50,332 bases of DNA, taken from Eledone cirrhosa. Lineage: Eukaryota. Positions within the stretch are counted from its first letter, which is position 1, and each line of letters begins with the position of its first letter. The stretch covers positions 1-50,332 of the forward strand of contig CAXHJY010001443.1 of the NCBI GenBank assembly GCA_964016885.1, read 5' to 3'. This document shows, in pieces, positions 5,631 through 49,420 of the stretch. The notes below the pieces were generated by a model. That model was not told where the DNA came from and made no database searches. It saw only the letters and a program-made list of their open reading frames with translations. The position numbers were made by a program, and so were the translations under genes.

Positions 5631-5822
5631 ATATGTAGATAAATCTACCAAGAGTTTACGGTAGTGTCCAATCCGTATGAAGAACTCAATGTATTCCGGA
5701 TATCATGGAAAGAAGAGATGTAATGAAAAACCACTTTCGGTGAAAGATAAACGGTATACAGAGTCAAGATAAAATATTAAACAAATAATGAATAAACAAT
5801 TCCTTATATTAAACAAAAAAAG

Positions 5823-5977
5823 TTCATTATTTAACGATCGTTTCTAGGATATATATGTGTTATAATTGGTATGCATATTCAACAGATCTATGTACAAAAT
5901 TATACAAAATTATACAAATTATCAAGATTAAATATACATACCAAACACATATATACGCCGTCTTCAGAAATAATGAA
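5823..5977 (-). ncRNA. Type I hammerhead ribozyme, family A (extended stem II), in PLE pLTR
   Basis: Minus strand: TTCATTATTT-CTGAAGA-[116 nt hairpin]-GAAAC-GATC-GTT-AAATAATGAA; 10-bp stem I, palindromic stem III. Confidence 0.82.
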
Positions 5978-6554
5978 GTATATTTATTGATAATAACAAC
6001 AATTCAAAATTTCAGTTCAAAATTGACCAATGAAAACACAAAGGGTTAAATGCAGTTCGGTGTGTGTATATACATGTAAAACCCTTACACATATTTTACA
6101 AAAATGTATGTATAATTTGTATACGCATACTAAAAGGATGGATGCAAATACAAAATTTCAAGGTTAATATCTCTGTAAGCTTACAATGCGCAGATAAGAT
6201 GCGCATTGATACTTATGGAGTCAAGTATATAAATATATTTTTTCATACTCACACATATCAGTACAATCACACATACACGCGCGTATATGCATAAATATAC
6301 ACATAACCACGAACATACAAACACACACACACCCCCACTCACATTTATATATGTGGATATAAAATCATAAGCACATGGATATTAATTCACTCACATAAAA
6401 CACTGGCACACACATTTTTAGATCAAGATACAGAAATTAGGTAGGAGGGGGGGGAGGGGTCAGTATTCAACTGTATGAGACGACTGCCTAATATAAATGT
6501 ATCTATAAATTAAGAAAAATAAAAAAATAAAACAATAAAATATAATAAATATAA

Positions 6555-8280
6555 TATAATATACATACACATACAGATATATACACATACATACATGTAC
6601 GCACACATAGAAATATTTACGCATACACACATACACACATACATATACAGTCATACACACACATACACTTACACGAACATACACATACACATATATAAAG
6701 ATATATATATACACACACACACACACGCAACATATACACACATACACATATATATAAAAAATAAATAATAAAGATATATACCCATATATATATACATACA
6801 CATATATATATATATATATATATATACATATACATACACATACATCTAAATATACATACACATACATACACACATACATGTACATACATGTACATACATA
6901 TACGCACATCGATATACATATATATATATATATATATATATATATACACACACATAGACATATAGATACATACACACACAACTTACATACACACATATAT
7001 ATATAGATGTATATTCATACATAGAATTAGATATATAATCATACATACATATGCACTTACTTATACTCATATATACAAATACATACGCATCCATATATGC
7101 GTATATACATAAAAAACACTACAACCTTACCTAACTCAGACATACAAATAAAAATAATAATAAAAAGGCATATGTATATACATACACACACGCATTAATA
7201 GAGATATATATATATATACACACATACATACACATATATATATATATATATATACACATATATATATATATATATATATATACACACACATACACTCATA
7301 CATATATATATATATATATATACACATAGATATCCACACACTCATACCACCATAAATACACATACAAACACCCACATATATATATATATATATATATACA
7401 CACGTATATATATATATATATATATACACACACATAAAAAACAGACATGCACATATATATATATATTTTTTTACACTTATATATACACATATTATATAGA
7501 CATACACAACCTCACTTATACACACATACACATAAGTTATATTATAATAATAAAGAATAATATACATATATATATATATATATACATATATATATATATA
7601 TATATATATACATACATACATACACACACATACATACATATAAACATATACATACATAAATACACACATACGAATAAAGACATATATTCACACATAGACA
7701 CCTATATATATATATATATATATATATATATATATATATATATATATATATACATATATATATATACACACATACATATACACAGACACATATACACACT
7801 CACATATATATATATGTGTGTGTGCGCACATACACATATATACACACACACACACAAATACACCTAAACACATACATATGCATACGTGCACACACACACA
7901 TATATATCACATAGATACGAAGATAAACATATAAATAGAGAGACATACATATATATACAACACATACATACATACACACGCATATACATATACATATATA
8001 TATACATATATATATTCCCACATATACATGCATACACATATATACACATATATACACATACATACACATATACGTACACACATTCACATACACATACATA
8101 TATAATGCATATATACACACATATACATACATATACACACTCATATATACACACGCAATCTTACATTCATATTTGCATGCGCATATATGTATTTTTATAT
8201 TTAGATATAAATACCCAAACCTATATAGACACCTACCTACATATATATTCATACATAGACGCTTACAAATATAGATGATA
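6555..8280. repeat. Degenerate (CA/TA)n low-complexity tract inside the PLE 3' region
   Basis: Visible; its 6555-7020 part is copied in the inverted pLTR, so it travels with the element. Confidence 0.85.
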
Positions 8281-9449
8281 ATAGTATGGGGGAAAGGGGG
8301 GGTTTGGAGAAGGGGATCAAAGTAAATATATGTTTCAAGAAACATAGAATATTTTCCGTATCTTTATCCAATGTATGTTCTTACATATTTTCAGTGCTAG
8401 GAAATACGACAAACAAGAACTAAGGCAAAATCTATGCATCTCAAAATAAATAAGTATACCATTAATCATATGTTAACTAAACCAAAGATAGTCAACATAT
8501 TGATTTCTAAGGTGTAAATTAGTTAGGTTTATAATATTTGAAGCAGAATTTTGAAGTCAAACAGTAGTAGATTATTAATTACAGTATAACTAAATTAAAG
8601 TTAATAACGTTATGGTATCAATATTAGGAAATGAATTTAGTAATAGGGAAAAAAAGCCAAATAAAAATAAAATAAAGTATTACATCGGTAGTAGAATATA
8701 AATTATATGTTAACTAAATTAAAAATTATATATTTATTTCAATAGTATATGTTAATTAGGTATACAATACATAAAGCAGATACTGTATTTCATCAATAGC
8801 ATAATATAATTATATGCAAATAGAAATCAAAATTAATACGCATACATATACATATACATACACATACACATATACATACATATACACACATATATATATA
8901 TATATATATACATATATACACATATATACATACATACAGATACACATACACACACACACATACACATACACATATACATATACATATCTTTTTCAAAAAA
9001 TTGCATAGAACATATTAACTAGGTATATATCCAAAACACATCCCATTTTATGATTACATGACATTCTGCAATTCGTCTGTATAAGGATACTAATTTTAAG
9101 CAAATTAAAATTAAAATTTTTAGGTTGATTAAAACTAAAACCAAATAATAAATATATTTCTAAAATGTATATTAATTAGGTCTATAATACTAAAAATTAT
9201 TTCTCTGTCATTGGATACACGATATTGTTTAGTTATATTTTATCTGTAAAAGAGTTATAATAAAAGGTTTAAATAAATTAAAATTAATCTATAAATTAAA
9301 TTACTAAGTATATATTAGTAATATTTAAAGGTTTTTCACAATTTATGATTACATAATATTTTGTATTCTCATCTGTAATAAAATATTAATTAAATTAAAT
9401 TTATAGGTTAACTAACATTTAAATTAAATTAATTTCTAAAATAATGTTA

Positions 9450-48207: not shown

Positions 48208-48678
48208 TATATTGTTCTGGGTATGACATTAAACTATGATATATATACATTGTCTATTATTTCCTCGTATTTTTAATTATATATATATATATATATTATA
48301 TAATAGAGAAAGAAGGTCAAACACGGACAGAGATATGAACTCTCCTCTCTATATGTGTATGTAAAACCTAATAACTTTTCTTCCCCTTTTGATTATTTGT
48401 ATAAATATGCAACATATCCGCAGTTGAAAAAGCATATAATGCTGAAACCGGTACCATTATTAATGGCGGAAATATCCACTTTATAAATATGTTTTGATAT
48501 TATATTGAAAGAATCTCTTCAGCATTTTCTACTGAAAATTTATTTTTCCTCTCTACTATTTGTTTTATATATATATCAACTCGTGTGTTACCCTCCTACA
48601 TTCCATATATATATATATATATATATATATATATATATACAAAGCGGGCGTTATAATAAGCGTCATAACTCACTCGAT

Positions 48679-48686
48679 ATGCAAAT
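48679..48686 (+). promoter_or_regulatory. Octamer motif ATGCAAAT in the retrozyme-like unit
   Basis: Exact match; function inferred only. Confidence 0.4.
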
Positions 48687-48760
48687 TAGGCTGCTCAGCC
48701 GTTAATTTTCATAAGGAAAGTATATACTTTCAAACGTTCAACCATCTGGCAGAAGGGTAT

Positions 48761-48803
48761 ACGGTGCTGATGATAGCTAACAAGCTTGAAACTAGTACAT
48801 CGT
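48761..48803 (+). ncRNA. Minimal type I hammerhead, family G
   Basis: ACGGTG-CTGATGA-T-AGCT-AACA-AGCT-T-GAAAC-TA-GTA-CATCGT; palindromic stem III ACTAGT. Confidence 0.8.
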
Positions 48804-49420
48804 TCCTGTGTCAGTGTTGAACAAAAAGGTGACGTGGTTGCCTTAACACCGTACGGCATAAATTCAGGCTGTTCAGTTTGTTTACAAACGAACAAAGCGG
48901 GCGTTATAATAAGCGTCCGCTAAACTGATACGTACATATATGTATGTGTACCTGTATGTATATATATATATATATATATATATATATATATATATATATA
49001 TATATATGCATGCTACTGTACGTCTGTATACATATATGTATGTACGTATACATACATACTTACATTTAAGTAAGTGCCGTACTAAGAGTGAGAAATGAAA
49101 TTTCATTTTCATTTTTATTACAACTTATATATATATATATATATATATATATATATATATATATATATAGTAATAATAATAAATTTGAAGACTAAAATCC
49201 AAAGGGGGCTCGATAAGGATAAATATATATCAAATATATAAGAACCATAGAGCAAATATTTATTAAAATAACAGATTAAAGTTTAAGCAAAGAATCCCTT
49301 CTTTCACCCTTAACGGGATCTTCTGAAACTAACAAAGTCAATCTGTAAACGCAGAAGTGGATATTTCAAAAAACGTTGCAACCGGAGGAAGACAGGAAGA
49401 CGATACTTTGGTTCGTGAAA

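Follow-up and report, generated by a model that had tools for sequence, protein, structure and literature searches.

What gathers hammerhead ribozymes of many families into small islands bounded by TA microsatellite? The question is raised by contig CAXHJY010001443.1 of Eledone cirrhosa, an unplaced contig of a 3.0-Gb assembly (GCA_964016885.1) that we analysed over its entire length of 50,332 nucleotides and call the window. An earlier note had listed 14 type I hammerheads there, in at least seven unrelated families (A to G), and had ascribed them to autonomous Naiad elements and non-coding ribozyme passengers that use (TA)n as a common landing site. We find parents of another kind. In our reading, to which we give a probability of about 85%, the islands consist of 3' stubs and inverted twins that derive from seven Penelope-like families, together with one retrozyme that lacks an open reading frame (ORF), and were likely inserted into (TA)n by a Penelope reverse transcriptase (RT)-endonuclease.

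Hammerhead motifs in the window

All 14 hammerhead coordinates proved right. A strict type I descriptor, which gave 0.15 matches per shuffle, accepted 8 of the 14 motifs. The descriptor was then relaxed, once family A was known, to permit a long stem II and basal mismatches. In this form it accepted 13 of the 14, and when the unique islands of the window were dinucleotide-shuffled 200 times it gave 2 matches (0.01 per shuffle). The shuffles reject a chance origin. An assembly artefact was also rejected, each family being found again on chromosome-scale contigs. The motif turned down by the relaxed descriptor, F at 37731, has a stem I of only 2 bp because an inversion junction took away the 5' strand; F copies elsewhere in the genome have stem I (TGCT/AGCA) whole. 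Scanning the window with Rfam at gathering score returned no matches, and scoring the whole window by E-value was swamped by microRNA-like matches to TA repeats. G gave a weak HH9 match (E=0.074).

The type I core CUGANGA...GAAA...UH with stems I to III describes 13 of the 14 motifs, the exceptions to record being the U4C core of B, the U4A core of H and the stem I of F. The number 14 holds for coordinates, but these represent only eight independent insertions because most motifs are inverted twins. Either A insertion supplies two motifs on its inverted twin arms, as do the insertions of B, D and E, and a local duplication of 1,546 bp contains both C copies. An eighth family, H, had been overlooked (49284-49330, minus strand, core CAGAAGA); stem III is altered in its window copy. 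In place of the CTGANGA core given for all motifs B has CCGAAGA, and the B copy at 24828 is missing 3 nt at the base of stem II. Contrary to the claim that no stem sequence is shared, B and F have the stem I TGCT/AGCA in common, and A and D are alike in stem II architecture and 3' end. These results confirm the motifs, at the level of sequence, as real type I hammerheads with predicted cleavage.

Penelope-like parents of seven families

We sought the parents of each family by extending its genomic copies. The ORF of family A in the window has the order RT to GIY-YIG endonuclease and contains RWR, DKT, the RT motifs FDIDNYY and YRDD, a CxCX5C linker, CxxC and CxH. Intact Hydra ORFs of 832-833 aa lie between B hammerheads at three loci (L233-L235). 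F is linked to a Penelope-like ORF at L236, a D-group variant to one at L231, C to one at L232, a variant of C at L242, and E at L273 and L271. H is linked to a unit of pseudo-long terminal repeat (pseudo-LTR), ORF and pseudo-LTR at L344. Pfam recognised none of the four Penelope ORF pieces in the window.

RT followed by a C-terminal GIY-YIG domain is seen in whole ORFs for A, B, F and H, and mainly at the endonuclease end for C and D. The Hydra motif set (RWK-like, DKT, CxCX5C, CxxC and CxH, with no CCHH) is present in all six, in C and D as far as the endonuclease part reaches. All six carry a hammerhead near the 3' end and insert into (TA)n. By these motifs, A, B, C, D, F and H are assigned to the pseudo-LTR ends of Hydra-clade Penelope-like elements. 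Family E is the pseudo-LTR of a 4.3-kb element whose endonuclease has a CX4CxxC linker and CCHH and is 17-25% identical to those of the other families. Compared by eye, it has the C-terminal endonuclease, CX2-5CxxC and CCHH of the Nematis clade, and E appears to end a Nematis-like element. Identity among the endonucleases of A, B, C, D and F is 38-47%, and the families cannot be called unrelated.

None of the parents found has the Naiad combination of an N-terminal endonuclease, a CxC linker, DKA and no canonical hammerhead. In every parent the endonuclease is C-terminal and the motif is DKT or DKS, never DKA. The Naiad assignment of the earlier note is therefore replaced by Hydra or Nematis-like motifs. 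Its picture of autonomous elements with non-coding passengers survives as a mixture that includes the ORF-less G, but C to F are joined to Penelope-like ORFs.

The tails of all six Hydra families contain a short word, ATTGAGY or TCGAGY, with window sites at about 5683 (A), 22245 (B), 29185 (D) and 49210 (H) and further sites in C and F copies. It is possibly a promoter or an enzyme-binding element. A similar word, GTTGAGCT, lies upstream of the start codon in A, B and F. We also noted a frequent TA-flanked palindromic repeat that has only the 3' half of a hammerhead, made up of GAAA, a 5-bp stem III, GUC and a stem I strand (L097, L099, L106, L110 and L291).

Family G, a tandem retrozyme

G is the only family without a linked ORF, as examined in 50 loci with 1.5-kb flanks. 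It forms head-to-tail arrays of 466-540 bp monomers with one hammerhead per unit, and by this unit structure it is a tandem non-LTR retrozyme. The ORF matches checked near G are neighbours across TA tracts or other repeats. A GC-rich Penelope-like element abutting G at L241 was considered as its parent and rejected, since G was on 0 of 13 further copies; four further ORF matches next to G were likewise neighbours that are not joined to it. The predicted circle of G folds at -152 kcal/mol, compared with -106 +/- 5 kcal/mol for 30 shuffles. G varies at 18 sites in public contigs, and position 7, which is free, is the sole variable position within the core. J and K are two further tandem families. 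J (466 nt; L232:6166-7083) matches G at 67% identity over 249 nt, and K is 311 nt long (L208:6130-7900); both have a short stem II with an AACA loop like that of G and a related hammerhead and predicted circle fold.

Insertion ends

The predicted cleavage site lies about 15-310 nt from the 3' end of the element, and every family ends at two fixed points past it, given here for five: +65 and +215 in A, +55 and +135 in D, +180 and +215 in E, +55 and +150 in F, and +250 and +310 in G. The inverted pairs in the window have the short end on one arm and the long end on the other. Terminal ends stop at the fixed points and pass into (TA)n in 18 of 18 cases for G (9 short, 9 long) and 26 of 30 for A. 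We infer that the footprint of G is genomic evidence of its probable mobilisation by a Penelope enzyme. Such an enzyme had been named as a candidate retrozyme mobiliser (PMC7229834), and Li et al. (bioRxiv 10.64898/2026.07.22.740005) argued for the same role from phylogeny.

At the cleavage site itself, 5' breaks are rare or absent (A 0/34, C 0/31, D 1/72, E 1/52, F 0/28, G 1/71) in samples that are biased to whole hammerheads; the breaks of B and H, swamped by TA repeats, are uninformative. Many A and C copies stop instead inside the 5' strand of stem I. For A this was seen in 18 of 30 copies from loci unselected for upstream sequence, in 5 of 14 bystander copies and in 20 of 25 copies from loci mostly chosen as pairs, with a sharp modal kept length of 7 nt. 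C stops at about 6 nt; 25 of 41 non-selected copies were flagged, a count that includes two mis-hits, two window copies and one copy keeping 12 nt. Little or no such hot spot was found in E (0/21), B (0/7), D (1/13, all bystander copies) or H (about 3/42). In both A and C the limit is the A of a BBCABW word, which we take to be an initiator-like consensus. The junctions mostly differ from one another and hence represent independent events. An untemplated G stands in place of the natural C at 7 of 17 A insertions, where the background is 9% (p=0.008, computed with 15%); with two ambiguous junctions removed, the count is 5 of 15 (p=0.06).

An extra G at full-length L1 junctions marks the mRNA cap (PMC11702581). 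In Drosophila Penelope, an internal promoter starts 46 bp ahead of an intron that ends at helix I (PMC2377424; PMC4209133). The likeliest reading of the stem I ends is run-off from a capped, linear, uncleaved mini-transcript, and the insertion junctions probably preserve a record of the RNA that was copied.

Abundance and association with (TA)n

We sampled the genome in 60 evenly spaced stretches of 10 kb at round coordinates (600 kb). (TA)6 or longer occupies 29% of the window and 4.3% of the samples. The samples gave 42 hammerhead matches in 24 of the 60 stretches, compared with 1 match in 10 shuffles; one stretch alone supplied 8 of the 42. The density of 70 per Mb extrapolates from these 600 kb to about 2x10^5 genome-wide. 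The window, with 13 matches where 3.5 are expected, is about 3.7-fold above average, and the Poisson p of 8e-5 for this excess is overstated because matches clump. Exact 30-mers were counted for A (5,187), G (11,525), H (17,933), C (15,436) and the D group (16,220), with 0 for reversed-pattern controls; first-look candidates numbered 145 for B, 97 for E and 1,510 for F. The count for A comes from the exact pattern, a DNA search with its hammerhead having returned nothing since its words were too common.

The predicted enrichment near (TA)n was found in the 600-kb sample, where 25 of the 27 clusters are no more than 250 bp from (TA)6, compared with 21% of control positions (p=8e-14). That most islands carry a hammerhead had been overstated, as the window also has six larger LINE/SINE islands (long and short interspersed elements) that are TA-flanked and have none. 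A tRNA-type SINE is within 60 bp of TA in 10 of 121 copies. TA is a shared sink, to which Penelope-type ends are tied far more strictly.

Conservation of stems and core variants

Covariation among genomic copies, which the earlier note had named as a check, was found in variants preselected for pairing. Across 22 variants of the D group, pairing holds in 98% of cells and both sides have changed in 9 of 20 pairs; the paired fractions are partly built in by the pairing descriptor. The covariation score exceeds those of all 500 shuffles. We also compared 47 de-replicated long stems II from the A/D group. Here positions 1-3 and 5-9 are paired, whereas position 4 is paired in none of the 47 and is C.C in 37. 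This invariant pyrimidine mismatch, flanked by covarying pairs, is not explained by pairing selection. It lies at the height where loop 2 touches stem I in canonical hammerheads, and by analogy it may be a substitute tertiary contact.

Stem III is mostly palindromic and varies as palindromes (ACAGCTGT/ACAATTGT; ATATATAT/ATGCGCAT/ATACGTAT). The palindromic stem III described before thus holds for most families, but not for C, E and H. The stem III of H is longer and could allow it to work as a monomer. Compensatory changes in stems I to III and kept palindromes are found across families. Folded alone, A (z -5.8) and F (z -2.0) do better than shuffles. Core and stem II variants are very abundant in the genome. 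U4C is known from a viroid and lowers activity in vitro (PMC3088659). Further hammerhead families, some of them multi-copy, have a U3-A8 core swap (TTGANAA; L196, L225, L229 and L279).

A model for the islands and its alternatives

The favoured reading would work as follows. The GIY-YIG endonuclease would nick (TA)n, and target-primed reverse transcription would begin at the fixed 3' end. With the hammerhead close to that end, even heavily truncated copies would retain the ribozyme. Every insertion would leave new TA edges for the next, and an archipelago would grow. For G, a multimeric transcript would be cut by its own hammerhead and closed into a circle, from which a Penelope enzyme acting in trans would make tandem arrays. 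Transcripts of A and C would be short, start inside stem I and be copied uncleaved, and palindromic stems III would favour cleavage as dimers.

Several observations weigh against this reading. A parent enzyme for G was not found, the clade calls were made on motifs rather than on a tree with reference proteins, and both cleavage and expression are deduced from sequence. Besides the preselection of variants described above, the number of D-group pairs changed on both sides was matched by 31 of 500 shuffles, and stem III is non-palindromic in E (AGAACT/AGGACT), C and H. Isolated hammerheads of B, C, D, E and G fold no better than shuffles (z +0.9 to -1.5), and the minimum-energy fold is frequently something other than the hammerhead. 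Of 25 LINE/SINE 3' ends sampled, all without a hammerhead, 8 come within 60 bp of TA, and to that extent the clustering is not specific to Penelope.

Some of these points suit a different account, in which the motifs are inactive relics in the pseudo-LTR that no longer cleave and the clustering is a passive build-up in gene-poor, TA-rich DNA. Two very abundant families have the U4C or U4A core, minimal hammerheads of metazoan Penelope-like elements (PLEs) cleave poorly in vitro (PMC4209133), and in our biased samples the cleavage site has almost no 5' breaks. Against it stand the compensatory changes and palindromes kept across families and, in G, a core that is invariant apart from position 7, and the 3' ends of G and A directly at (TA)n point to targeting. 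We consider this account unlikely. The combination of autonomous Naiads with several independent non-coding passengers (C to G) is less probable still. Naiads are known from cephalopods and often insert into (TA)n (PMC8557442), most copies of C, D, E and F have no ORF, G truly lacks one, and the A and C mini-elements act like non-coding passengers. Yet Naiads lack canonical hammerheads (PMC8557442), every parent found has the domain order and DKT or DKS described above, and C, D, E and F are each joined to a Penelope-like ORF. The ORF-linked copies refute this combination for A to F and H.

The A and C hot spot has a competing explanation of its own, namely folding or trimming of cDNA or RNA at the hammerhead, or self-copying of palindromic DNA, in place of a transcription start. 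In its favour, the hot spot falls at a structure boundary, the excess of G is modest once the ambiguous junctions are removed, and four families show little or no hot spot. Against it stand the independence of the junctions, the sharp kept lengths at the A of BBCABW in both families, and the excess of G in place of the natural C. We regard trimming as a real possibility. Tentatively, we propose a joint reading in which A and C have a promoter inside stem I and a capped, uncleaved RNA of 135-350 nt is copied whole, giving thousands of mini-elements in which the extra G is a reading of the cap. Circular RNAs of G, J and K would be copied by these enzymes too, into tandem arrays with the same two-end, inverted, (TA)n signature. 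If this is true, the hammerhead would be a dimer-gated switch between a linear capped and a circular template. The genome would be a fossil record of the Penelope replication intermediate. About 2x10^5 natural variants, including the U4A, U4C and 113-nt stem II forms, would then be open to assay.

Features of the window

Table 1. Elements and hammerhead motifs along the window. Clade names follow protein motifs and, for E, comparison by eye.
Feature	Position	Strand	Remarks
Family A, near full-length Hydra-clade Penelope-like element	5631..13340	-	ORF in three broken frames; left end, 3' pseudo-LTR with long end; right end, inverted 3' pseudo-LTR copy with short end
Hammerhead A (sense)	5823..5977	-	Stem I 10 bp, stem II 113 nt, GUU triplet; palindromic stem III ACGATCGT
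Hydra-clade ORF of A	9450..11942	-	Three overlapping frames; RT, C-terminal GIY-YIG
Hammerhead A, inverted arm	13131..13285	+	Relaxed descriptor
Family A palindromic mini-insertion	15170..15710	.	Arms: hammerheads 15225-15369 (-) and 15368-15512 (+), meeting inside stem I 5' strand; short end left, long end right
Family B, 5'-truncated Hydra-clade element	22107..24905	-	Endonuclease 23813-24523
Hammerhead B	22323-22369	-	Core CCGAAGA; within 22107..24905
Hammerhead B, inverted arm	24828-24871	+	Within 22107..24905
Family C mini copy, stem I to short end	26246..26294	-	Pseudo-LTR stub of Hydra-clade element
Second C copy	27792..27840	-	Product of 1,546-bp local duplication
Family D inverted pair, 3' untranslated region (UTR)/pseudo-LTR	28165..29250	.	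Hammerheads 28207-28272 (-) and 29055-29120 (+)
Family E palindromic pseudo-LTR pair	36725..37290	.	Hammerheads 36878-36922 (-) and 37030-37074 (+); from Nematis-like C-terminal-endonuclease element; ORF start on long end
Family F stub	37686..37880	-	Hammerhead 37731-37774; stem I 5' strand lost at inversion junction
Family G, about one monomer of ORF-less tandem retrozyme	48640..49125	+	Hammerhead 48761-48803; stem III ACTAGT; terminates at long end, then (TA)n
Family H, 3' part of Hydra-clade element	49176..50332	-	Runs off contig; hammerhead-like motif 49284-49330, U4A
LINE without hammerhead	17155..22050	+	Endonuclease-RT ORF 1076 aa; TA-flanked
LINE without hammerhead	29326..33853	-	Endonuclease-RT and C2H2 fingers; TA-flanked

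The plus-strand LINE seems full-length, with its ORF uninterrupted and a terminal repeat AAAAGAGT, and sits in (TA)n. A 600-bp repeat without a hammerhead occurs three times (35288-35897, 38102-38717 and 44314-44918); its ends resemble the minus-strand LINE, of which it is likely the non-autonomous partner. A ribozyme like that of hepatitis delta virus (HDV) at its 5' end was considered by eye and found no support in Rfam. Two SINE-like repeats lie at 47590-47780 and 47945-48190; we take them to be of the tRNA type. The first has 121 matches in the 600 kb, mostly away from (TA)n. The duplication of interrupted (TA)n with the C stub (25450-26300 and 27000-27850) is either real or an assembly effect in this unplaced contig.

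Comparison with known systems

The closest relatives are the Hydra-clade elements of Craig et al. (PMC8557442), a clade that includes Hydra-1_Obim and 14 families from Hydra magnipapillata. It is described as having RT followed by a C-terminal GIY-YIG domain, together with canonical hammerheads, and 26 of the 27 families listed, one of them from Octopus, target (TA)n. The elements described here are the same in their domain order and motifs (RWK/RWR, DKT, CxCX5C, CxxC and CxH), in the hammerhead near the 3' end, in the (TA)n target, in the inverted 5'-truncated copy with a tail at one end, and in the many families per genome. They differ in being longer, with a 3' UTR of 1-4 kb, in having tails of about 60-150 nt compared with 30-40 nt, and in that several families reach thousands to tens of thousands of exact copies. 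The hammerhead table of that paper lists no U4C or U4A core, no 113-nt stem II and no stem II position-4 mismatch. Rows of its Fig. S2 for the Nematis clade agree with the E parent in the C-terminal endonuclease, short CX4CxxC linker, CCHH, YIGET and C-terminal pattern, whereas a long insertion separates RT motifs A and B in the E parent, which was called by eye. Naiads have the (TA)n preference and the inverted or tandem insertion structure in common with the elements of the window, but are described with an N-terminal endonuclease, DKA and no canonical hammerhead (PMC8557442).

The minimal hammerheads that Cervera and de la Pena (2014, PMC4209133) described from Penelope pseudo-LTRs also come in many variable families per genome with palindromic stems III. 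They occur mostly singly or as opposite-strand pairs 100-700 bp apart in truncated elements, and they can have an extra base after A9, as E does here. The density of about 70 per Mb and the long stems I and II of several families set the present genome apart.

G agrees with metazoan non-LTR retrozymes (PMC7229834; bioRxiv 10.64898/2026.07.22.740005) in that it consists of ORF-less tandem repeats, each unit with one type I hammerhead, is low in GC, has a highly self-paired predicted circle and coexists with Penelope-like elements. Retrozymes are known to form circular RNA, and for G the circle is predicted. Its monomer of 466-540 bp exceeds the retrozyme RNAs of about 170-400 nt reported (Cervera and de la Pena 2020, PMC7229834; Li et al.), and the Penelope two-end, inverted-copy, (TA)n signature of its integration is not described for retrozymes in the sections of those papers available. 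Full-text searches that covered few subscription papers returned no account of cephalopod retrozymes, of a U4A core or of a start site inside stem I.

That many hammerhead families share (TA)n within one genome is to be expected of the Hydra clade and is already visible in the Hydra tables of PMC8557442. What our literature searches did not find elsewhere is the Penelope-type integration of G, the stem I stops of A and C, and the abundant core and stem II variants. PMC8557442 and PMC7229834 pose two questions, what the hammerhead does in Penelope elements and which enzyme mobilises animal retrozymes. This genome offers intact young Hydra ORFs, an abundant retrozyme with a Penelope-type footprint, and hot spots that predict an exact RNA 5' end, and together these make both questions directly testable. 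We conclude that the arrangement is largely known biology, mostly explained by the systems compared here, with testable additions.

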